DNA of 64,000 bases from a virus: IMG/VR virus record IMGVR_UViG_3300025132_008118, one strand, 5' to 3'. Below, in pieces: positions 946-40,260 of this stretch. The notes beneath the pieces are model-generated. The model worked only from the letters and a program-made list of their open reading frames with translations, was not told where the DNA came from and did no database searches. Position 1 is the stretch's first letter; the number at the start of each line of letters is the position of its first letter. The position numbers and the translations under genes are program-made.

Positions 946-1170
946 ATGTCTCCTCAAGAAATATTTGATTATAAATTAGGGTGGAAATCTTATTCATTTT
1001 CTGTCCCGTTTCATTCAGATTGGGAAATGGAATATAGAGATTACTGTAAAGAAAATTTTAATAAATGGCAGTGGGATATGTATAAATGGTCAAACGTTTA
1101 CGAGCATACGATGTTATTTGAAAAAATAAAAGATGCTGATAAGTTTAAAGAATTTATTGATAAACGATAA
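946..1170 (+). CDS. Hypothetical phage protein (probable start at ATG 946, MSPQEIFDYKLGWK)
   Basis: The ORF-track start at 928 lies inside the hairpin; W/Y-rich 74-aa protein. Confidence 0.55.
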   Translation: MSPQEIFDYKLGWKSYSFSVPFHSDWEMEYRDYCKENFNKWQWDMYKWSNVYEHTMLFEKIKDADKFKEFIDKR

Positions 1171-1184
1171 ACATATACTATAAT
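1157..1184 (+). promoter_or_regulatory. sigma70-type promoter TTGATA-N16-TATAAT
   Basis: ATG of uvsX 8 nt after the -10 box. Confidence 0.65.
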
Positions 1185-1192
1185 AGTAGTAT

Positions 1193-2293
1193 ATGAGTAA
1201 AGAAATTGATGATATTTTATCTGTAATTGATAAGTCTAATCCATATGCATCTTTCTTAAATGAAAGTGCTATTAGTAATGTAGATGGTTGGTTAGATACT
1301 GGATCGATGGTACTAAATGGTATTGTATCTGGTTCGTTGTTTGGTGGTATACCGAAAAATAGAATGACCTTATTGGCTGGTCCAAGTATGACTGGTAAGA
1401 GTTTTATTTTACAAAAGATTCTAGCTAATGCTCAAAAAGAAGGTTTGATACCAGTTATATTTGATAGTGAAAATGCTATTGATAGAGACGGTGCTGCTGC
1501 TTTAGGATTAGATGTTAGCAAAGTAAAATATGTACCTGTATTTAGTATTGAAGAATGCCGTAATACAATTTATGATTTTTTAACAAAAGTTAAAGAAAAC
1601 GGTCAAGAAGGTAAATTTATTATTGCAATTGATTCATTAGGTAATATGGAAAGCCAATTACAGATCAATCGTCAGGAAAAAGGTAATGTAAGTGCTGATA
1701 TGGGTAGTAGAGCTAAAGCTATGAAATCTTTATTACGTACTTTAACTCAATTATCTGGTTTAACTAAAACTACTATTTTAGCTACTAATCATATCTATGA
1801 GGACCCGGCTGCATTATTTCCTTCGTTAGTTAAAGCAATGCCAGGTGGTACTGCTACTGTTTACTTACCTTCAGTTACTATTCAATTAGCTCGTAAGCCA
1901 GTTAAAGAAGATAAGAATACAGATGGTAAGTTAGCTGTAGGTCAGAAGAATTATTCAGGGGTTATTCTAAGAGCATTGACAGTTAAGAATAGATTCGTTA
2001 AGCAATATTTACAAGGTGAAATGTATCTATCTTTTGATAAAGGTCTAAACAAATATTATGGTTTATTGGATCTTGCAGTAGGGTTAGGAGCAGTGATACA
2101 AACTGGTTCTACTTATACATTACCTGATGGTAAGAAACTTGGCTATTATAGTAAATGGAAAGACGATACAGAATTATGGGATAATACTATTATACCTGTT
2201 GTAGAAGAAAAAATTAAACAAGAATGGAAGTACAGTAATAAATCAGAAGAAGATGAAATTATACCAGACGAAGTAAACGATGAAGAAGAATAA
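1193..2293 (+). CDS. uvsX: RecA/UvsX-like recombinase
   Basis: LDTGSMVLNGIVSG, Walker A GPSMTGKS, FDSENA, IAIDSLGNM, TNHIY, KNRF. Confidence 0.93.
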   Translation: MSKEIDDILSVIDKSNPYASFLNESAISNVDGWLDTGSMVLNGIVSGSLFGGIPKNRMTLLAGPSMTGKSFILQKILANAQKEGLIPVIFDSENAIDRDGAAALGLDVSKVKYVPVFSIEECRNTIYDFLTKVKENGQEGKFIIAIDSLGNMESQLQINRQEKGNVSADMGSRAKAMKSLLRTLTQLSGLTKTTILATNHIYEDPAALFPSLVKAMPGGTATVYLPSVTIQLARKPVKEDKNTDGKLAVGQKNYSGVILRALTVKNRFVKQYLQGEMYLSFDKGLNKYYGLLDLAVGLGAVIQTGSTYTLPDGKKLGYYSKWKDDTELWDNTIIPVVEEKIKQEWKYSNKSEEDEIIPDEVNDEEE

Positions 2294-3026
2294 AATAGTT
2301 ATAACCTTATCAGGGGGAATGGATTCATCTGTTCTACTTTATAAAGCAGCTGAGCAATATAATGAAGTACATACTGTAACATTTAATTATGGTCAACGTC
2401 ATGATAAAGAATTAGAAGCAGCAGAAAAACAATTAGTTAACGCTATGCATGATTTTCCTAATGTTACATTTACTAATAAATTATTAGACGTTACTTATAT
2501 AAAGGATATAGCTGATACATCTTCTCTAACTAATAATAAAATTGATACACCTGATGTAAAAGATGTAATGGGTGAAGCTCAACCTAAATCATATGTACCA
2601 TTCCGTAATTTAATGTTTTTAAGCATATTACTATCATATGCAGAAAAAATGGAAGCTGATGAAGTATGGTACGGTGCAGCAGAAGCTGATAGTCTTGCTG
2701 GTTATTGGGATGGATCTATACAATTTGTCGATAAAATAAATCAAATTTGCTTATTAAACCGTGAAAAGGATATAAGAGTTAGAGCTCCTTTACTTGAAAT
2801 GAGTAAAAAGGAAATTATTTTAAATGGTGTTGAGCTTGGTGTAAATTTTGCTGATACTTACACATGTTATTCTGGTGAATATCCATGTGATGCAAATAGC
2901 GCAAGTAGTGCACTTAGATTAAAAGGGTTTGTAGACGCAGGATTGCAAGATCCATTACGTTATAAACAGCAAGATAAGTTAGATTTAGTTTATACAGATA
3001 ATAATTGTAAAGCTATAATATATTAA
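2280..3026 (+). CDS. queC: QueC-family PP-loop ATPase (7-cyano-7-deazaguanine synthase-like) with a degenerate Zn site
   Basis: SGGMDS PP-loop, FNYGQRH..EL, YVPFRN..FLS, APLL.MSK.EI, TCY.G; CxxCxxC replaced by D/S/S and YPDC by YWDG. Confidence 0.85.
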   Translation: MKKNKIVITLSGGMDSSVLLYKAAEQYNEVHTVTFNYGQRHDKELEAAEKQLVNAMHDFPNVTFTNKLLDVTYIKDIADTSSLTNNKIDTPDVKDVMGEAQPKSYVPFRNLMFLSILLSYAEKMEADEVWYGAAEADSLAGYWDGSIQFVDKINQICLLNREKDIRVRAPLLEMSKKEIILNGVELGVNFADTYTCYSGEYPCDANSASSALRLKGFVDAGLQDPLRYKQQDKLDLVYTDNNCKAIIY

Positions 3027-4546
3027 TAACCGTGTCTATGCATTCTCTCTCGTGAATGAGCATTTTGCATTTTTTGTCTGTACTGATTAAGTAGATAGTT
3101 ATTAATATCTTGTTGGGACATTGCAACTTGCTCTTCTTCTTCATCTTTAGGTAAAGCCTTTTTCATTAAATGACCACCCGCAGCCGCTGCAGCTCCACCC
3201 GCAGCCGCTAATCCTAACACTGGTAATATATTATCTTCAGCAGGTTCATCTTCTTCTTCTGATTTCTTTTTTGCATGATTGTATTCAAAAGTATCGCCAT
3301 CGCCGACATCGTCGTAATGATCTGCAACTGCTCTTGCATGAGCTTGACCTGCTCTTTCCTTCTCTTTCTTCATTATTTTATCAGCTCTTGCTTCTCCATA
3401 TTCATAAGTTTCTTCATCGCCGCTCATTGGGCAATTTTCAGCTTCTTCTCTTCTACCTTCTTCTTTATTCATTGCAGCTTTAATGGCCTTATCTCTAGAT
3501 CCCATATATTCATCTGTTGATGATTCTAGCTCACCATCACCATCGTGATCCTTTTTAGCCGTTTCTTCACCTTCTATTCTTCTTCCATAACGATCAAACT
3601 TACCTTCTTCACCTTCAGGGAAATCAGCAACTAATTTTTCTCTATCACCCATTTCTATTTCACCACCAAATTTATCAACTTTTTCTGTTTCACTTGGCTT
3701 TACAATTACAACTGATACTACATCATCTTGTTTTATATCATCTAAGTTAAGTTTAGTACCTTTAAATTTGTTTAGGGTAACTCTATATTTTAAACCATCA
3801 CTAATAGTAGTATATAAATCGTTATCTCCCACTCCACCTTCTGATTTGAACACTTTATCTCCTCCTAAATTTAATTGAAGAGTTTCAAAACCTGTATCAC
3901 CCTTCTTAAGACCTTCTTTTGCAGCTCCTCTTTCTCTTGTTGTAATTTTTACATCTGATCTACCTGCCAAAGGTTTTGAAACTTGTGAAACTACATTTAT
4001 TGCATTTTGAATATCATCATTTGATAAATTTTCTAAGTCTAATTCGGGATTTTCTTTTTGTAAAAATCTAATTACTTTAGTTGCAAAATATCTAGGTGTC
4101 ATTGTACCTTTTAAATCACGGATATCTTCCATTCCCATTAGTTTGGCTCTAATAGGGTCTGTTATTTTCTTACCCCTTGCTTCTTCTATTAAATCATAAT
4201 CTATGCCTTCCAGATAACCTTCAGTTGAAATTTTTACTTGTGCAAATGCTTTTCGAATATCGTCGTCAGATGCATTTGAAATATCTAATTGAGGATTTTT
4301 ATCAATAATCTGCTGAGCATAAATTTTTGGCGATACTCTGCCCATTTGAGATGCAATATCCAAACTACCTAATCTTGCTGCTAATTGTGCCACCGGGTGC
4401 TTTATTGTTTTCCATTTTGCAGCAAGCATGCTTTTATCAAAAGGGTTAGTGGTTAATTCTTCGATATAATCGTAGTCAATACCATCCATATAGCTTGATG
4501 TGTTTTCGTTAATAATTTTTTTATTGCTCCAGTTATGTAAACTCAT
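3023..4546 (-). CDS. Acidic late protein, probably head/prohead-associated; two 92-aa N-terminal repeats
   Basis: TAAATA box 5 nt upstream; repeats GIDYDxIEE...NPxLD; DHDGDGELES..EYMGSRDKAIK motif; Gly/Ala hydrophobic segment near the C-terminus. Confidence 0.55.
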   Translation of the reverse strand: MSLHNWSNKKIINENTSSYMDGIDYDYIEELTTNPFDKSMLAAKWKTIKHPVAQLAARLGSLDIASQMGRVSPKIYAQQIIDKNPQLDISNASDDDIRKAFAQVKISTEGYLEGIDYDLIEEARGKKITDPIRAKLMGMEDIRDLKGTMTPRYFATKVIRFLQKENPELDLENLSNDDIQNAINVVSQVSKPLAGRSDVKITTRERGAAKEGLKKGDTGFETLQLNLGGDKVFKSEGGVGDNDLYTTISDGLKYRVTLNKFKGTKLNLDDIKQDDVVSVVIVKPSETEKVDKFGGEIEMGDREKLVADFPEGEEGKFDRYGRRIEGEETAKKDHDGDGELESSTDEYMGSRDKAIKAAMNKEEGRREEAENCPMSGDEETYEYGEARADKIMKKEKERAGQAHARAVADHYDDVGDGDTFEYNHAKKKSEEEDEPAEDNILPVLGLAAAGGAAAAAGGHLMKKALPKDEEEEQVAMSQQDINNYLLNQYRQKMQNAHSRERMHRHGY

Positions 4547-4551
4547 ATTAT

Positions 4552-4557
4552 TATTTA
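4552..4557 (-). promoter_or_regulatory. Late promoter box TAAATA
   Basis: TATTTA on the + strand, 5 nt from the ATG at 4546. Confidence 0.65.
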
Positions 4558-4585
4558 TTGATTTTTTTTAATTTTATACTATAAT
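4558..4585 (+). promoter_or_regulatory. sigma70-type promoter TTGATT-N16-TATAAT
   Basis: Back-to-back with the divergent late box; ATG at 4594. Confidence 0.65.
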
Positions 4586-4593
4586 ATAGTTAT

Positions 4594-5265
4594 ATGTGTG
4601 GTATTTATTGCAGTAATGATTTGTCTACCTTTGAAATTTTACAGGAGGCTAATAAAAAGCGTGGTAATTTTTCGACTGGTATATTTTACTGTTATAATAA
4701 AGCTAATTATAATATACTCAAAGAAAAAGGTAATATAAACTGGAATAAAACTAAAATACCGCACCAAGAAGGCCATATATACTTGGGTCATAACCAGGCT
4801 CCTACCGAAACAGGTAGAGGTTGGCAAGAGGAAACGTCTCATCCATTTTGGGTAGGTGATTGGATAGTAGCTCATAATGGTGTTTTAACTAATTCTAATG
4901 AATTAATTGATGAATATATACCAATGCATGATAACCCTGTAGATAGTAGTATAATACCAGCATTATTAGATGAATTTGAATATACCCATGGTCCTTGTGA
5001 AGACGCTGAAACTGAAGTACAAAATATATTATACACTATAGAAAAACTTAAAGGTACATTTGCTTTATGGATAGTTAATATTAAAACTATGAATGTATAT
5101 ATAGCAAGACAAGGTAGCACATTATATTACAAAGACGCTAATATATCATCAATTAAGGGTAACGGTTATAAAGAAGTATTACAGGGTGTACTTTATAACT
5201 TTTCATATGAAGGCTTAACTGAAATAGACGGGTTTGTATATGACTCACCATTTTTAACATTATGA
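4594..5265 (+). CDS. Class II (Ntn) glutamine amidotransferase domain protein
   Basis: N-terminal MCGI (catalytic Cys), NKKRG, GHNQAPT, SHPF, AHNGVLTN, VDSSII, LKGTFAL. Confidence 0.88.
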   Translation: MCGIYCSNDLSTFEILQEANKKRGNFSTGIFYCYNKANYNILKEKGNINWNKTKIPHQEGHIYLGHNQAPTETGRGWQEETSHPFWVGDWIVAHNGVLTNSNELIDEYIPMHDNPVDSSIIPALLDEFEYTHGPCEDAETEVQNILYTIEKLKGTFALWIVNIKTMNVYIARQGSTLYYKDANISSIKGNGYKEVLQGVLYNFSYEGLTEIDGFVYDSPFLTL

Positions 5266-5735
5266 ATATAAATTACGTAACAATTAACCAATTAACTGAA
5301 ATAGATAAATTAAGATTTATTAAATTTATTTACGATAATACAGACTCCTTTATTTTAAATACATTTGGCCATACATGGTCAGGTAGAGATTGGTGGTCTG
5401 AGCATCCAATAGAGGTATGTACTGATGATACGGGTAGGGTACTTGGATTGCATGCATATACTGTGAATACTAAAGCAGAAGATACATTAAAAACATATTA
5501 TATAGTTACATCTAAATATAATAGGGGTAAAGGTATTGCTAAATTGTTAATTAAAAATGCTTTATATAAACATAAAGATGATATTAAATTTTATTACGTT
5601 AATTCAGATGTAAAAAGTGAAGGAGCTGTCTTTTATAAAAAATGGTTCGGAGACAGTTTTACCCTTGAAGATAATGATTTTTCTTCGCAAGATATGATTT
5701 TTAAGGAACCGGTTTATAATATTATAGATGGGTAA
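5262..5735 (+). CDS. GNAT-family acetyltransferase
   Basis: Acetyl-CoA motif A YIVTSKYNRGKGIAKLL; later AVFYKK. Confidence 0.7.
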   Translation: MNINYVTINQLTEIDKLRFIKFIYDNTDSFILNTFGHTWSGRDWWSEHPIEVCTDDTGRVLGLHAYTVNTKAEDTLKTYYIVTSKYNRGKGIAKLLIKNALYKHKDDIKFYYVNSDVKSEGAVFYKKWFGDSFTLEDNDFSSQDMIFKEPVYNIIDG

Positions 5736-6066
5736 TTTAAAAACTACAGGTAAGCCGCGTCAATTTGAAACCGGTGCTCAACGAGATAACGGAGATGGTA
5801 AACTTCGAATGAGTTTAGTACCTCATAAGGCCTTAAATGGGGTAATGATGAGGTATTTACAAGGGGCTGATACATACGGGGAAAATAATTGGAAGAAAGG
5901 TATGAAACACTCAGTTTTGTACGATAGTACTATGAGACATCTCATGCAAGATTTTACTGGTGATGATAGTGAAGACCATTTAGGAGCTGCTTTATGGAAT
6001 ATTATGGGTATGATCTGGAATAGAGACCATAAACCTGAAATGGATGATAGAAAAGAATATGAGTAA
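5728..6066 (+). CDS. dATP/dGTP diphosphohydrolase-like protein (DUF5664-type)
   Basis: FETGAQRD..DGKLRMSLVP..AL, GA.TYGENNWKKG, STMRHL, DHLGAALWN. Confidence 0.85.
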   Translation: MGNLKTTGKPRQFETGAQRDNGDGKLRMSLVPHKALNGVMMRYLQGADTYGENNWKKGMKHSVLYDSTMRHLMQDFTGDDSEDHLGAALWNIMGMIWNRDHKPEMDDRKEYE

Positions 6067-7153
6067 AGTATTTGTTTCCGGTTGTTATGATATTATTCAT
6101 GCAGGTCATATAGAATTTTTTAAAGAAGCTCTTAAACAAGGAGATAAACTGGTAGTGTGTATACCATCTGATGAAGTATTATATCAGTATAAAAAAAGAC
6201 GACCTAGTATACCAATCGAGCATAAGATAGAAATTTTAAATAATATATCTTTTATTGATGAGGTGGTAATTGGTGGTAATTTAGATAAAAATGGTTTAAA
6301 TTTTAAAGACATTATAATAAAAATATCACCAGACGTTTTAGTTGTTACGTCAGATGATAAGTTTGAAAAAAGCAAAAGAAAATTTTGTACAAAGCACAAT
6401 ATAGGATACGTTAAACTAGAAAAAACTCCTCCAAAGTTTGACCCAATAAGTACATCATCTATTCTTAATAATATTAAAACACCAAATGAAGCTCCCTTAC
6501 GGGTTGACTTAGCTGGTGGTTGGTTAGATGTACCTGAACATGCAAGAGATGATGGGTTTATAGTAAATTGCGCAATATCACCAACTGTATCTTTACATAA
6601 TTGGCCGTATGAAACCCAATCTGGACTCGGAGGTAGTGGAGCATGGGCATTATTGAATGGTAAAGATGGGGTACAAAGTGAATTAGATTTAGGTGTTGGG
6701 TGGCAAGACCCAGCTGTAATAAAAGAAACTGGTTTATGTGTTTGGAAAAGTGGTGAAAAACCTCATCTTATCTTAAAACGAAACGGGGATATATTAAAAG
6801 GTAAAATGGCATTACATTACACTGGAATTAGTCATGATACTCCGTCATATGTTAAAAATAATCGTGATTATAATTTGTTAGCTAGGTCTAGTCGTTTAGC
6901 ATACACAGGGGTACAAAATAATAATTTAGAGCAAATATGTGCTGGTATTAATATGAATTATGAAGTACAATTAAAAGAAGGTATGAATGCATCACCAGTT
7001 ATTGAAAATACAATAGCAACCAAATATTGCGGTGGTGGTTTTGGTGGATATATTTTATCTGTATTTTATAATAAAATAGATCGTGATAAATTTATTAATA
7101 ATTATCAACATTTTGGAGCAATTAAAATAGAACCATACTTAAATGAAATATAA
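6059..7153 (+). CDS. Fusion of an HxGH nucleotidyltransferase and a GHMP-family sugar kinase
   Basis: N-terminal SGCYDIIHAGH; C-terminal APLRVDLAGGWLD, SGLGGSG, GWQDP, KYCGGGFGG; start taken at ATG 6059. Confidence 0.8.
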   Translation: MSKVFVSGCYDIIHAGHIEFFKEALKQGDKLVVCIPSDEVLYQYKKRRPSIPIEHKIEILNNISFIDEVVIGGNLDKNGLNFKDIIIKISPDVLVVTSDDKFEKSKRKFCTKHNIGYVKLEKTPPKFDPISTSSILNNIKTPNEAPLRVDLAGGWLDVPEHARDDGFIVNCAISPTVSLHNWPYETQSGLGGSGAWALLNGKDGVQSELDLGVGWQDPAVIKETGLCVWKSGEKPHLILKRNGDILKGKMALHYTGISHDTPSYVKNNRDYNLLARSSRLAYTGVQNNNLEQICAGINMNYEVQLKEGMNASPVIENTIATKYCGGGFGGYILSVFYNKIDRDKFINNYQHFGAIKIEPYLNEI

Positions 7154-7799
7154 AATTTATACAACTACTAAAGGTGAGAAAGAAGATACTTTATTATATA
7201 AATCTCTTAATAAAAAATATTACGATATACCAGTACATTATGAAGAAAAAAATACTAAAAGTTTGCAAAGCTGTTATAACAGCTTTTTGGAGGACGCTCG
7301 TAATAATAACGTTGATATCTGCGTATTTGTCCATGATGACGTTTTTATTAATTGCGGGGATTTGTTGCATAGGTTGGACAATTATGGAAAAATGTATACA
7401 GTTTTTGGTCTCGCAGGGGCCAAGGCATGCAAGGTTAAAGAACCTGCTTTATGGCATCTTATGTCCGAAAGAAAAGACCAAAGAGGAAATGTTGCTCACG
7501 GATATCCTGACCAATATCAGTATACTTCGTTTGGCCCTATTCCAGGCCGTGTTTTGGTTATTGATGGTGTCTTTATCGGCATTAATATACGAAATTTACC
7601 AACTAATGTAAAGTTTGATGAATCATACCCATCTAAGTTTCATTACTATGATTTAGATTTTAGTCTAGAATGCAATAAAAATAGTGTTAAAATAGGGGTT
7701 GTGGATATACCAATAATACATTCAAGTCCAGGTCTAACAAACCCTAACGAAGAGTTCTATAAAGGACAGGAATACTTTATTAAAAAATGGAAACGGTAG
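7143..7799 (+). CDS. GT2-like glycosyltransferase
   Basis: SCYNSFL, VFVHDDV (DxD-like), VIDGVFIGI, FHYYDLDFSL, IIHSSPG. Confidence 0.75.
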   Translation: MKYKIYTTTKGEKEDTLLYKSLNKKYYDIPVHYEEKNTKSLQSCYNSFLEDARNNNVDICVFVHDDVFINCGDLLHRLDNYGKMYTVFGLAGAKACKVKEPALWHLMSERKDQRGNVAHGYPDQYQYTSFGPIPGRVLVIDGVFIGINIRNLPTNVKFDESYPSKFHYYDLDFSLECNKNSVKIGVVDIPIIHSSPGLTNPNEEFYKGQEYFIKKWKR

Positions 7800-8224
7800 T
7801 ATTAGTTACAGGGGGATTTGATCCTTTACATTCAGGGCACTTAGCTTATTTTAGAGCAGCCAAGAAGCTAGGCGATAAGCTTATTGTTGGTATTAATTCC
7901 GATTCGTGGTTAGAGCGTAAAAAAGGAAAAAACTTTTTACCTCTTAGTGAAAGGTACGAGATAGTATCCGCGCTAAAGTATGTTGATAATTGTATACTAT
8001 TTAACGATGAGGATGATACTGCAATTGAAGCCATACGTAATGTTATAATGCTGTACCCTTTTGATAGGATTATATTTGCTAACGGAGGTGATAGAGTTGA
8101 GGGAAATACCCCTGAGGAAGATGCCAAGTTCTTTCCGGAAAAAGATATTATCTTTCAATATGGAGTTGGAGGGCTTGATAAAAAAAATAGTAGTAGTTGG
8201 ATATTGCAAAGATGGGAAAAATAA
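7787..8224 (+). CDS. Cytidylyltransferase-like protein (RfaE domain II/TagD family)
   Basis: VTGGFDPLHSGH, LIVGINSD.WL.RKKG, ER.EIV.AL.YVD, FANGGDR. Confidence 0.85.
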   Translation: METVVLVTGGFDPLHSGHLAYFRAAKKLGDKLIVGINSDSWLERKKGKNFLPLSERYEIVSALKYVDNCILFNDEDDTAIEAIRNVIMLYPFDRIIFANGGDRVEGNTPEEDAKFFPEKDIIFQYGVGGLDKKNSSSWILQRWEK

Positions 8225-8523
8225 CACAAACGAGATGGGGTAGTTACAATGTTTTATTAGAAGGTAAAGATTATAAAATTAAAACTTTACATATTGAACC
8301 AGGCAAATCATTAAGTGATCAAAGACATTTTCATAGAAATGAACATTGGTTTATTTTAGAAGGAGAATTATCTCTTAACGGTGATATATATCACAAAAAT
8401 GATTTTATTAATATACCAGTTGAAAAGTGGCATTTACCAGCTAATATTAGTAATAGTATGTGTGTTATTTGCGAAATACAATATGGTGATAAATGCATAG
8501 AAGAAGATATTGAAAGAAAATAA
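8212..8523 (+). CDS. Cupin, mannose-6-phosphate isomerase type II C-terminal-like
   Basis: RWGSY.VL, KIK.LHIEPGKSLS.QRH.HR.EHW, EIQYG..C.E.DIER. Confidence 0.8.
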   Translation: MGKITQTRWGSYNVLLEGKDYKIKTLHIEPGKSLSDQRHFHRNEHWFILEGELSLNGDIYHKNDFINIPVEKWHLPANISNSMCVICEIQYGDKCIEEDIERK

Positions 8524-9863
8524 TGGAAGATATAGGTAGATTAAATTTAGATTATTATGAGCAGGTTATAGTTTATAAGAGCTTAACTAACGAAAGTTAT
8601 CTAACTCAAATTATAGATCATATAAAGCCGGATTACTTTAATGATAAAAATATTAAGACAGTCTTTAATTTAATAACTAATTTCTATATTAAGAGGCAGA
8701 GTATACCTACTATTACTGAATTAAAGTCATACTTAATTAATGATGAACTTAAAGAAAGTTTTAGATCAGTTGTAAAGAATTTTCCTAATATTGATAAAAA
8801 CTTTAATGATGAAGAATTAACTTCTAATACTGAACGTTTCTTAAAAGAAAGGGCAATATATAATACAATGTTATCAGTTGCTGAAGATGTTAGTAAAGGT
8901 GAAGTTAATACGAGTTTTATTTTAGATAGCTTTGAAAAAAGCTGTAACGTTAATTTAAAAGAAGAAATAGGTTTAGATTTATTCGAAAATATTGATAAGG
9001 TTGTAGATGATTTGAATATAGATCAACCTACCATATCTTCAGGTTGGAAATGGTTAGATGATAAAATAGATGGAGGTTTCTTAGAAAATGGTAGATCGTT
9101 ATATGTATTTGCTGGTGAATCTAACGTTGGTAAATCTATATTTTTAGGTAATATAGCTTGTAATATAGCTTCAAGAGGTAAGACGGTTTTAGTTATTAGT
9201 CTTGAAATGTCAGAGATGATATACGCAAGAAGATTATCATCTAATATAACTAGAATACCGATGAGAGAACTAAAAGGAGCTGGTCAATCTTTATCAGCTC
9301 AAATAAAAAGTTATAATAGTGGTAAACCTAATAGTAAAATTTTAATTAAAGAGTTTCCACCTAGTACTGTTACGCCGCAGAATATACAAGGTTATATTAC
9401 TGAATTAAAAAATAGAGGTATTAAAGTAGATGCAGTGGTTCTTGATTATTTGAATCTATTAAAAAGTCCTCTCGGTGATAATTCTTATGAAAGAGTTAAG
9501 CATGTTGCTGAGGGTATACGAGCATTAAGTTATGTTTTTGAATGCCCGTTTATTTCTGCAACTCAGTTAAATAGGTCAGGTTACGATGAAGAGAATCCTG
9601 GTTTAGATACCATATCAGAATCTATTGGAATGGCTGCTACTGCTGATTGTATTTTTAGTATATTTCAAGATGATGAAGATAAGGAGTTAGGTATAGTTAA
9701 GATGGGTATGATGAAAAATAGATATGGTGCTAATTATGGCTATACAGCATTAAGGTTAAATTATGACACGTTAACTATTTCAGAGGATGAAACGTTAAAC
9801 GTTGACGATGAAGGTAGCGAAATGTCTGATTTAACTAATACTCTCAACCTGTTGAGTAATTAA
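8523..9863 (+). CDS. gp41: Replicative DnaB-like helicase (T4 gp41-like)
   Basis: Walker A GESNVGKS, SLEMSE, IKEFPP, VVLDYLNL, SATQLNRSG, SESIG, KNRYG. Confidence 0.93.
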   Translation: MEDIGRLNLDYYEQVIVYKSLTNESYLTQIIDHIKPDYFNDKNIKTVFNLITNFYIKRQSIPTITELKSYLINDELKESFRSVVKNFPNIDKNFNDEELTSNTERFLKERAIYNTMLSVAEDVSKGEVNTSFILDSFEKSCNVNLKEEIGLDLFENIDKVVDDLNIDQPTISSGWKWLDDKIDGGFLENGRSLYVFAGESNVGKSIFLGNIACNIASRGKTVLVISLEMSEMIYARRLSSNITRIPMRELKGAGQSLSAQIKSYNSGKPNSKILIKEFPPSTVTPQNIQGYITELKNRGIKVDAVVLDYLNLLKSPLGDNSYERVKHVAEGIRALSYVFECPFISATQLNRSGYDEENPGLDTISESIGMAATADCIFSIFQDDEDKELGIVKMGMMKNRYGANYGYTALRLNYDTLTISEDETLNVDDEGSEMSDLTNTLNLLSN

Positions 9864-9885: not shown

Positions 9886-10773
9886 ATGCCTAAGATCCAT
9901 ATAATTACAGATGCAGATCTAGACGGAGCTGGTTCATACTTATGTTTAAAGCAAGCTTATAATGATGTAACGTTAACGTATTCAGTTACCACAGAAAAAA
10001 AGTTTATTAGTGATGTAGCTTATTTTAAATTTGAAGATTATGATTTAGTAATTATTAGTGATTTAAATCTAAAAGAAAGTGAAATTAGACTTTGTGATTT
10101 AAAAAACGTTATTGTAATTGATCATCACGCTGAGCATATAGAACTAATTGATAATTATAAAAATGCTAAACCAATAGTAAAAGACTACCCATCATGTACT
10201 AAGTTAATATATGATACCTTCAAGTTAGAAAATAAGCTAAATAAAAATCAAAAATTATTGGTTAAACTAATAGATGATTACGATAGTTATAAATTAAAAT
10301 TACCGTTTAGTAAACCATTAAATCAAGTATTTTGGTCTTATACAGGGGATAGAGTTAATAAATTTGAAAATGATTTTAAAGATGGTTTTTTTGGTTTTAA
10401 TCAATTTCAAAAAAATGCTTTAAAAATTGTTGAAAATAAAATTAATAACTTTTTTAAAGATGAGACCATACACAGAGGTGATATAAAAATTGGTAATACT
10501 GTTTATAATGTAGCAGGTGTTATGGTATCATTTAGCCCGAATGAAATAGCTGAACGTATTATAGATCAATATGGAGTAGATTTCGTTATAATGGTAAACC
10601 TGGAAGGTAAAAGTGTTTATATGAGACGGAGCAATAATTGCCCGCTGAATATGGGTAGATTAGCCTTTAAACTTATGAACGGCGGCGGTCATCATGATGC
10701 TGCTGGTGGAACTTTAAACGATTCGATAATTAATATTACTAAATTACTTAAACCAATTATTAATGAAAAATAA
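9886..10773 (+). CDS. DHH/DHHA1-family phosphoesterase
   Basis: DADLDG, ISDL, IDHH, DDYD, GGGHHDAAG. Confidence 0.85.
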   Translation: MPKIHIITDADLDGAGSYLCLKQAYNDVTLTYSVTTEKKFISDVAYFKFEDYDLVIISDLNLKESEIRLCDLKNVIVIDHHAEHIELIDNYKNAKPIVKDYPSCTKLIYDTFKLENKLNKNQKLLVKLIDDYDSYKLKLPFSKPLNQVFWSYTGDRVNKFENDFKDGFFGFNQFQKNALKIVENKINNFFKDETIHRGDIKIGNTVYNVAGVMVSFSPNEIAERIIDQYGVDFVIMVNLEGKSVYMRRSNNCPLNMGRLAFKLMNGGGHHDAAGGTLNDSIINITKLLKPIINEK

Positions 10774-11047: not shown

Positions 11048-11672
11048 TATAGAAAAGGTAATTTATAATAATTTTTTAGAAGTTAGTAAAAAGGTTAATA
11101 ACAAGCCAGTAAAGTATAGAAAGAATTTTGATAATTTTCCGGATGAAAGTTATATCATTGTTAATAAATTAAGTAGTTTTTTCTTTAAATTTAAACATTT
11201 AAAAATAAAAGATTTTTTCGAAGCACCGTATTTTGTTTACGATGAAAATTATTTTGATTTAAAATTTTATCTTGGACCTAAAGCAATAAAAGCCTATACT
11301 TTATACAATGATAAGTTTCTTTTGAATAATCCTGATGATGATAAGACATTATCTAAAATGCAAGAATCGATAAAATTTATTTACAACTATTGTAAAGAAA
11401 GAGATGTCAATATTAAAGATTACCTTACAATAAAAGAAGGTGAATATAATGTTTTTCTTAAGCATATAAAAAATAGAGATATTATTATCTTTGTATTATT
11501 TGCTTTTAGTAATTTTGAAAAAGTAGTAGGTTCTATAGATACAGAGATAAAAAATATGTATAGTTCTAATTTCTCTCGATTGAACTATATTAGAACAAAA
11601 TACTATTCTAGCTCTAAAGCAAAGAAAATAATTAATAATTTTAAAATATTCGTTGAAAAACGAAAAGTATAG
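11028..11672 (+). CDS. Hypothetical protein, possible gp59-like helicase loader (start probably 11040)
   Basis: Basic and aromatic-rich, about 210 aa, directly upstream of gp32 as T4 gene 59 is. Confidence 0.4.
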   Translation: MMDSMTDIEKVIYNNFLEVSKKVNNKPVKYRKNFDNFPDESYIIVNKLSSFFFKFKHLKIKDFFEAPYFVYDENYFDLKFYLGPKAIKAYTLYNDKFLLNNPDDDKTLSKMQESIKFIYNYCKERDVNIKDYLTIKEGEYNVFLKHIKNRDIIIFVLFAFSNFEKVVGSIDTEIKNMYSSNFSRLNYIRTKYYSSSKAKKIINNFKIFVEKRKV

Positions 11673-11680
11673 TCTATAAT
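11653..11680 (+). promoter_or_regulatory. sigma70-type promoter TTGAAA-N16-TATAAT
   Basis: ATG of gp32 6 nt downstream. Confidence 0.65.
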
Positions 11681-19048: not shown

Positions 19049-19076
19049 TTGAAATATATAATATTGCATTTATAAT
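19049..19076 (+). promoter_or_regulatory. sigma70-type promoter TTGAAA-N16-TATAAT
   Basis: GTG start of the primase 6 nt downstream. Confidence 0.65.
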
Positions 19077-40232: not shown

Positions 40233-40260
40233 TTGAATAATTAAACTAATATAGTATAAT
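40233..40260 (+). promoter_or_regulatory. sigma70-type promoter TTGAAT-N16-TATAAT
   Basis: dUTPase ATG 6 nt downstream. Confidence 0.65.

Follow-up and report, generated by a model that had tools for sequence, protein, structure and literature searches.

Which base does a phage make when it carries, close to its replication genes, a QueC homologue, a stand-alone glutamine amidotransferase (GATase), an acyltransferase of the GNAT fold and a stand-alone DUF5664 protein? The question is raised by the IMG/VR record IMGVR_UViG_3300025132_008118, from an uncultured marine T4-like phage, of which a stretch of 64,000 nucleotides (the window) was analysed computationally. An initial annotation had seen in these four genes a candidate new purine-modification pathway, whose substrate might not be 7-carboxy-7-deazaguanine (CDG) at all. 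The genomes of related phages point instead to a known type of system. With a probability of roughly 0.6, the four genes are the QueC arm of a system of the DpdA3 type, in which a 7-deazaguanine derived from preQ1 (7-aminomethyl-7-deazaguanine) takes the place of guanine, the GNAT protein acylating preQ1. The DpdA3 type has been linked to complete guanine replacement (PMC10516641).

The linkage of the genes is far beyond chance, the same gene order recurring in 31 IMG/VR loci found through QueC and in 80 found through the GATase (92-39% identity). The latter 80 were compared for the content of the slot, defined as whatever stands between the glutaminase and DUF5664 genes. It holds a GNAT gene in 56 loci and a DpdN-like gene in 15; eight slots are empty, the gene of a family 2 glycosyltransferase (GT2) following the glutaminase gene directly, and one is cut off by the end of its contig. 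One locus, L152, is counted among the 56 although its GNAT gene is displaced by about 300 bases downstream. The DpdN-like gene was recognized in three sister loci in which tblastn found no GNAT and the gap is filled by a formyltransferase of family PF00551 (177-182 amino acids). Against 50,697 phage records this protein matches only immuto phages (40% identity, E 5e-30), and in a pairwise comparison it aligns with YP_010114479.1 of immuto at E 1e-39. The immuto protein has been named DpdN and is a predicted dPreQ1 formyltransferase (PMC10516641). GNAT-type contigs contain no DpdN and DpdN-type contigs no GNAT; DpdN is likewise absent from the window and from G001, a GNAT-type sister contig of 185 kb that is 88% complete.

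Mapped on a tree of 53 distinct glutaminase sequences, the GNAT/DpdN label has to change 6-7 times, each change being required by branches with good support, and in several sister pairs the slot is the only difference; a smaller tree built from QueC, GATase and DUF5664 agrees. Two sister pairs show 90-93% DNA identity up to the final bases of the glutaminase gene, and identity of 80-94% resumes at the start of DUF5664 or about a dozen bases before it. GNAT and DpdN have replaced each other, gene for gene, in at least six exchanges whose breakpoints coincide with the gene borders. Because the GNAT gene takes the place of DpdN gene for gene, the most likely function of its product is the N-acylation of preQ1 to acetyl-preQ1. 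Homologues of the GNAT protein down to 48% identity occur in this slot only, and the 41% copy of L152 lies in the same operon.

One locus and one clade deviate from the usual arrangement. In L152 (positions 5001-8828 of the locus, in a 221-kb IMG/VR contig), the GNAT gene begins 300 nucleotides after the GATase and is followed by an open reading frame (ORF) of 161 amino acids, a GIY-YIG-like gene on the other strand and DUF5664. The N-terminus of the 161-residue product resembles nucleoside 2-deoxyribosyltransferases, by eye only; next to a dNTP diphosphohydrolase, such a gene is reminiscent of DmtZ and DUF5664, which are paired in Z-genome phages. The clade (L153 and L155-L161, GATases 39-41% identical) has QueC, GATase and then GT2, without GNAT, DpdN or DUF5664; it may make untailored dPreQ1.

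By its modelled fold and its CoA-binding motif, the slot protein of the window belongs to the GNAT superfamily. Its AlphaFold2 model (pLDDT 87.9) was matched by Foldseek to many GNATs with probability 1.0 and TM-scores of 0.6-0.74, and resembles the amine N-acetyltransferases SpeG, PaiA, RimI and NatC. The stretch RGKGIA at residues 88-93 follows the acyl-CoA-binding pattern R/Q-x-x-G-x-G/A, G91 being invariant and R88 and A93 nearly so. Many homologues carry precomputed Pfam matches, and a protein atlas gave viral GNAT clusters only; tblastn against the phage records, NCBIfam and PADLOC gave no match. An adenine modification like that of Mu Mom was considered and rejected; no Mom-like enzyme stood out in the fold searches. 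The acylating role proposed in the initial annotation is upheld by the replacement of DpdN, with a change of substrate: the enzyme would, most likely, follow QueF and modify the preQ1 amine, not the product of QueC.

The rest of the pathway was read in the parent contigs of related IMG/VR loci, not in the window's own genome. Tblastn with immuto and sister-phage proteins detected no FolE, QueD, QueE, DpdA or QueF in the 64-kb window, in agreement with the initial annotation. The parent contigs of the loci found through QueC encode QueF, QueD and a type-IB GTP cyclohydrolase, FolE2. Sister contig G005, collinear with the window, has a three-gene cassette of a protein like tRNA-guanine transglycosylase (TGT), a P-loop kinase and a bimodular QueF. 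The first is 51% identical (E 1e-83) to DpdA3 of Flavobacterium phage immuto_2-6A, and the kinase 34% identical to the one adjoining DpdA3 in that phage. Profile searches of the sister contigs with PF01702 (TGT) found no DpdA3, the family being too divergent, and the cassette was located with QueF and immuto DpdA3 as probes. G001 encodes FolE2, QueD, a QueE-like radical SAM protein, DpdA3, the kinase and QueF. With QueC, it has the full set for preQ1 synthesis (FolE2, QueD, QueE, QueC, QueF), its QueE-like gene scoring below curated cut-offs. Given these genes in the sister genomes, QueC almost certainly acts on CDG, and the idea of a new purine pathway with another substrate is not supported.

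The cassette itself shows some variation. In G005, QueC and the cassette share a strand, the cassette being located some 61 kb downstream. In G001, QueC is at 101.5 kb on the plus strand and the cassette at 21.3-23.6 kb on the minus strand, 80 kb upstream, a position that could reflect rearrangement, a permuted assembly or a chimera. For the G005 kinase (L047:4281-4835), encoded between DpdA3 and QueF, two matches were obtained: a PHROG with the annotation 'thymidylate kinase' and the ribosylnicotinamide-kinase region of NadR (TIGR01526 positions 164-320, 2e-8). Its substrate could thus be a nucleoside and not a nucleotide.

The QueC of the window belongs to the canonical family. It matches Pfam QueC at 5.9e-53, scores 165.5 bits against the NCBIfam equivalog TIGR00364 (cut-off 150.3), and has the QueC structures 2pg3 and 3bl5 as PDB matches. 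The motifs described for canonical QueC are the P-loop SGGxDS, YxQxHxxE and VPxRN (PMC13329287), and they are found here as SGGMDS (residues 11-16), YGQRHDKE (37-44) and VPFRN (106-110). Two other motifs have changed. In place of YPDC stands YWDG (residues 142-145), which retains the essential tyrosine, and the QueCs of KVP40-type phages have the same YWD (GYWD) variant. Of the zinc motif C(x)8CxxCxxC only two cysteines are left, the other two being replaced by serines. This SASS-type loss, of two or three of the four cysteines, is seen in all sister loci, the more distant sisters retaining one cysteine, and the QueC of immuto_2-6A also lacks the zinc cysteines and has the same SASS stretch. 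The DNA of immuto_2-6A contains formylated dPreQ1 (fdPreQ1), as shown by mass spectrometry (PMC10516641). Since the loss is shared by the sisters and by the fully fdPreQ1-modified immuto_2-6A, the zinc-less protein is, judged from sequence, the normal QueC of preQ1-type DpdA3 phages. The presence of QueF and DpdN in the genome group leads to the prediction that it converts CDG to preQ0 (7-cyano-7-deazaguanine).

The partner of this enzyme would be the stand-alone glutaminase. It matches Pfam GATase_6 at the cut-off (27.1 bits), GATase_7, and the NCBIfam models for the N-terminal domains of GlmS and PurF. The protein starts with MCG, and Cys2, R23-G24, H94-N95-G96 and D117 are invariant in seven diverse homologues; they correspond to the N-terminal cysteine nucleophile, the arginine, the Asn-Gly oxyanion hole and the glutamine-binding aspartate of class-II GATases. 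A homologue directly follows QueC in KVP40 (KVP40.0124, KVP40.0125), Vibrio phage 1.081.O and the jumbo Vibrio phage 2.275.O (L050:6004-7328 for KVP40; L051:5004-6319 and L048:7207-8615). In the KVP40-like phages and 2.275.O the pair lies within clusters of FolE, TGT-like, QueF and QueC genes; 2.275.O also has a gene of COG1738, 'vitamin uptake transporter', between QueF and QueC. The DpdN-type sisters retain the same QueC and glutaminase, and their pathway runs through preQ0 and preQ1. The pair would therefore have to deliver preQ0 and not archaeosine (G+), and the supply of ammonia to QueC is the simplest role for the glutaminase. By analogy with asparagine synthetase, it probably provides QueC with ammonia derived from glutamine. 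The service of a free Ntn glutaminase to QueC, already suggested in the initial annotation, gains from the adjacency of the pair in three phage lineages. The literature found on QueC describes ammonia use and fused Gat-QueC only, and names no role for a stand-alone glutaminase.

The last of the four genes encodes a DUF5664 protein that matches PF18909 (dGTP_diPhyd_N) at 7.5e-20, with 71.2 bits against a cut-off of 27, over profile positions 2-99 of 99, and also phrog_801 and phrog_18716; no PDB sequence match was found. The stand-alone DUF5664 protein of Arthrobacter phage Wayne converts dATP, dGTP and dUTP to their monophosphates (PMC12884076), and the activity of this homologue indicates that a protein of 112 amino acids can be a complete enzyme. 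By this analogy the window protein is plausibly a dNTP (dGTP) diphosphohydrolase, as the initial annotation had it, though its specificity is a prediction. Removal of dGTP fits complete guanine replacement. The gene is present in 36 of 52 GNAT loci, in all 14 DpdN loci and in none of seven empty-slot loci; it is a facultative accessory, not a core member. MazG-type entries in the Foldseek results were discarded (E above 4). Tblastn with the window protein found no DUF5664 in immuto, and a PF18909 profile search was also blank there, a weak negative as all 14 control genomes were blank too.

Other phages of this type have nucleotide-handling genes of their own. Immuto gp208 (L052:7317-7841), a PRA-PH/MazG-type NTP pyrophosphatase, is encoded just upstream of DpdA3. 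Phage phiST has CGPG_00068 beside DpdA3, described as dUTPase/MazG-like (PMC10516641). A small protein with a phosphoribosyltransferase domain, gp211 (L052:5878-6273), is encoded between QueE and FolE in immuto and has a weak homologue in G001 (26% identity). Gp208 and gp211 hint at base handling at the nucleotide level.

Taken together, a route can be proposed. FolE2, QueD and QueE would produce CDG, which the zinc-less QueC would convert to preQ0 with ammonia released from glutamine by the stand-alone Ntn glutaminase pairing with this PP-loop enzyme. QueF would reduce preQ0 to preQ1, and the slot enzyme would then acylate the aminomethyl group of preQ1. In the sisters, DpdN would add a formyl group and give fdPreQ1; in the window, the GNAT protein would use, probably, acetyl-CoA and form 7-(acetylamino)methyl-7-deazaguanine, acting on the free base, on a nucleotide or on DNA. 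By hydrolysing dGTP to dGMP, DUF5664 would reduce the pool of the competing nucleotide; the dGMP formed may enter a route at the nucleotide level. DpdA3 would bring the base into DNA.

A number of points weigh against this reading. All enzyme roles in it are predicted, and DpdN itself has only been predicted in the literature. The DpdA3-kinase-QueF cassette is known from the sister contigs and not from the window's genome. QueC enzymes have been described as zinc-dependent (PMC13329287), and a zinc-less QueC might have an altered chemistry. About one GNAT locus in three has no DUF5664, PF18909 is widespread among phages whose DNA is ordinary (421 records, most of them from actinophages), and the structural model of the protein is poor (AlphaFold2, pLDDT 67), Foldseek giving no significant match. 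The GNAT protein stays below the Pfam gathering cut-offs (Acetyltransf_7, 23.8 against 27 bits; Acetyltransf_1, 20.4 against 20.7), its fold searches in PDB and BFVD returned only generic GNATs, among which no enzyme that modifies bases, Mom-like or other, stood out, and no homologue was found outside this phage lineage. The case for its function is one of position alone. Finally, the slot may be a hot spot of recombination in which unrelated genes come to lie, and sugar-activation genes and GT2 follow it in the same operon.

The last two points lead to the alternatives that survive best. According to the main one, the GNAT gene is an unrelated accessory, e.g., a host-takeover or anti-defence acetyltransferase, inserted at such a hot spot, and the base is plain dPreQ1. 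Phages often swap unrelated genes at fixed sites, one clade has an empty slot, and the GNAT protein has no characterized relative and generic fold matches. Yet the 79 readable loci offer only two alternatives, both of which would transfer a small acyl group to amines; DpdN and GNAT are never found together, the GNAT is retained in this operon down to 41-48% identity, and the breakpoints fall exactly at gene borders where start and stop codons overlap. An accessory gene of this kind is unlikely.

Another possibility is that the slot enzymes N-acylate an amino sugar, activated by the neighbouring nucleotidyltransferase and kinase and transferred by GT2, for a glycan or a glycosylated base. Both PF00551 and the GNAT family include sugar N-acyltransferases, and the slot formyltransferase has weak PDB matches to sugar formyltransferases (0.005 or weaker). 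Its nearest PDB match, however, is PurN (2e-7), far ahead of these, and it is a specific orthologue of immuto DpdN, whose gene stands between DpdA3 and the kinase-QueF pair with no sugar genes nearby. The sugar-activation genes of the operon, moreover, vary independently of the slot gene. An amino sugar as the acceptor is distinctly improbable.

It is very improbable that glutaminase and QueC act as the fused Gat-QueC of phage 9g, which gives dG+ (PMC6884629), and turn preQ0 into G+ for insertion in DNA. Both proteins match the fused-type family phrog_10428, but the glutaminase is closer to GlmS-/AsnB-type families, the genes are separate and in reverse order with an opposite-strand gene between them, and the bimodular QueF and the sister-phage DpdN need preQ0 and then preQ1. 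A protein deazaguanylation system of the QatC/QatB type, the alternative named in the initial annotation and a use of QueC-fold proteins in bacterial defence systems (PMC13329287), is hardly credible, since PADLOC returned only its QueC model (4.1e-16), with no Qat model and nothing for the neighbours, the neighbourhood offers no QatB-like partner, the protein retains YxQxHxxE and VPxRN and scores above the equivalog cut-off, and the genome group has the whole deazaguanine pathway. Purine replacement of the PurZ type was also rejected, there being no PurZ context and a whole deazaguanine set.

The preferred reading, a preQ1-based DpdA3 system with an acylating GNAT, can be compared with systems already described. 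The closest characterized relative is immuto_2-6A, the fdPreQ1 phage. It has in common with the window lineage DpdA3 (51% identity in the sister contigs), the adjacent P-loop kinase, bimodular QueF, QueD, zinc-less QueC, an associated NTP pyrophosphatase and, in the sister phages of the window, an orthologue of DpdN (40%). In contrast, the window has a GNAT in place of DpdN, which is found neither there nor in the 88%-complete sister genome. The tailoring gene stands beside DpdA3 in immuto_2-6A and in the QueC arm in the window lineage, and the latter has FolE2 where immuto has FolE. The stand-alone glutaminase, DUF5664 and GT2 of the window have no immuto homologues by tblastn; immuto has its PRA-PH/MazG-type hydrolase.

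Phage 9g (PMC6884629) likewise combines a class-II GATase with a PP-loop enzyme of the QueC family in a deazaguanine pathway. Its Gat-QueC is an N-terminal fusion, whereas the window encodes two proteins, QueC and then GATase, 1.5 kb apart, with the opposite-strand gene between them, and their context (QueF, DpdN/GNAT, DpdA3) argues for preQ0 and not G+. KVP40-/nt-1-like phages (Schizotequatrovirus) and 2.275.O share with the window QueC followed by a glutaminase of about 200 amino acids, with the same conserved residues and the GYWD variant. Their QueC keeps the four zinc cysteines, their partners are of the DpdA2/ArcS type with low-level modification, and they have no GNAT, DpdN or DUF5664.

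The DUF5664 proteins of Wayne, stand-alone as in the window, and of Acinetobacter phage SH-Ab 15497, fused to DUF550 (PMC12884076), have the same full-length Pfam domain in a base-replacement setting. In these two phages 2-aminoadenine stands in for adenine, and dATP is the preferred substrate of the Wayne enzyme; in the window guanine would be the target, and the gene is facultative. The dPreQ1 methyltransferase DpdM and the formyltransferase DpdN are each, as is predicted for the window enzyme, one small protein decorating the 7-aminomethyl nitrogen of preQ1. The window enzyme differs in its GNAT fold, its presumed acyl-CoA donor and its predicted product, which has not been reported.

The features of the locus are listed in Table 1. 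The initial annotation placed the four genes between uvsX and the helicase, with the last three overlapping. The coordinates bear this out, with overlaps of 4 bases between GATase and GNAT and 8 bases between GNAT and DUF5664; they also show an opposite-strand gene between QueC and the remaining three, and four sugar-related genes ahead of the helicase.

Table 1. Genes and sequence elements at the QueC-glutaminase locus of the window
Feature	Positions	Strand	Remarks
Promoter-like TTGATA-N16-TATAAT	1157-1184	+	8 nucleotides before the uvsX start; would drive uvsX-QueC
uvsX	1193-2293	+	End overlapped by the QueC gene
QueC, 248 amino acids	2280-3026	+	Predicted preQ0 synthase, zinc-less type
QueC zinc-motif remnant	2865-2918	+	C196 and C203 kept; Ser207 and Ser210 in cysteine positions
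Acidic low-complexity protein, 507 amino acids	3023-4546	-	No family matches
Promoter-like TTGATT-N16-TATAAT	4558-4585	+	8 nucleotides before the GATase start; near-leaderless operon start
Stand-alone class-II (Ntn) glutamine amidotransferase, 223 amino acids	4594-5265	+	No synthetase domain
GNAT-fold acyltransferase, 157 amino acids	5262-5735	+	Variable tailoring slot
Stand-alone DUF5664 (PF18909), 112 amino acids	5728-6066	+	
Four sugar-related genes	6044-8523	+	Nucleotidyltransferase-kinase fusion, GT2, second nucleotidyltransferase, small cupin-like ORF
GT2 (PF13712)	7143-7799	+	
DnaB-type replicative helicase	8523-9863	+	Closes the operon; Pfam, PHROG
DHH/DHHA1 phosphoesterase	9886-10773	+	Directly after the helicase

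The two promoter-like elements belong to a small series. The pattern TTGAWW-N16-TATAAT has five exact matches in the window, where 0.62 are expected by chance; the other three are at 11653-11680, 19049-19076 and 40233-40260, also on the plus strand. Each lies 6-8 nucleotides before a start codon, and the genes that follow are uvsX, GATase, gp32, primase and one further gene. This placement suggests leaderless or near-leaderless mRNAs of replication genes. As the promoter type of the glutaminase module is that of uvsX, gp32 and primase, the module is probably transcribed together with the replication genes.

The opposite-strand gene stands between QueC and GATase in every member of the lineage, and its product is without match in Pfam, PHROG or PADLOC. 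It diverges fast, being 33-78% identical across loci where QueC is 73-94% identical, and a TAAATA-type box is found upstream of it on the minus strand. The gene probably encodes a late virion protein that does not belong to the pathway. A DNA search of the region against the phage records gave only one match, of 115 bases, which lies inside this gene. On the other side of the module, GT2 is found just upstream of DnaB, mostly adjoining it, in every related locus that reaches so far, the empty-slot clade included. Its neighbours, the nucleotidyltransferase, kinase and cupin-like genes, are present or absent by locus, and GT2 alone is always kept.

Much of this system has been published, namely the DpdA3 system, QueF, DpdN and the activity of DUF5664. 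The literature search returned nothing relevant on an acetyltransferase in 7-deazaguanine DNA modification. The literature searched does not describe the proposed tailoring of preQ1 by a GNAT, the repeated exchange of GNAT and DpdN cassettes, a stand-alone glutaminase partner of QueC or the zinc-less QueC. A QueC without a zinc site would be the one used by phages that fully replace guanine. A dedicated glutaminase partner is possible for an enzyme described as ammonia-dependent, also in KVP40/nt-1-type phages. The recurrence of NTP pyrophosphatases with DpdA3 bears on the question of whether guanine is replaced at the nucleotide level or in finished DNA.

So far, eight 7-deazaguanine derivatives have been described from DNA; two of these are preQ1 tailored with a methyl or a formyl group. 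If the present reading is true, acyl-preQ1 would be the ninth, with a precise predicted mass. A wider picture may be drawn tentatively, with somewhat less than even confidence: a widespread group of uncultured marine T4-like phages would write either a formyl or an acetyl group on the preQ1 that replaces their guanine, swapping the genes as a cassette. The acetyl base would be an undescribed one, and its synthesis would rely on a glutamine-dependent, zinc-free QueC and mostly on dGTP clearance. Such repeated exchange among near-identical phages fits a variation of the mark under pressure from host nucleases that recognize modified DNA.

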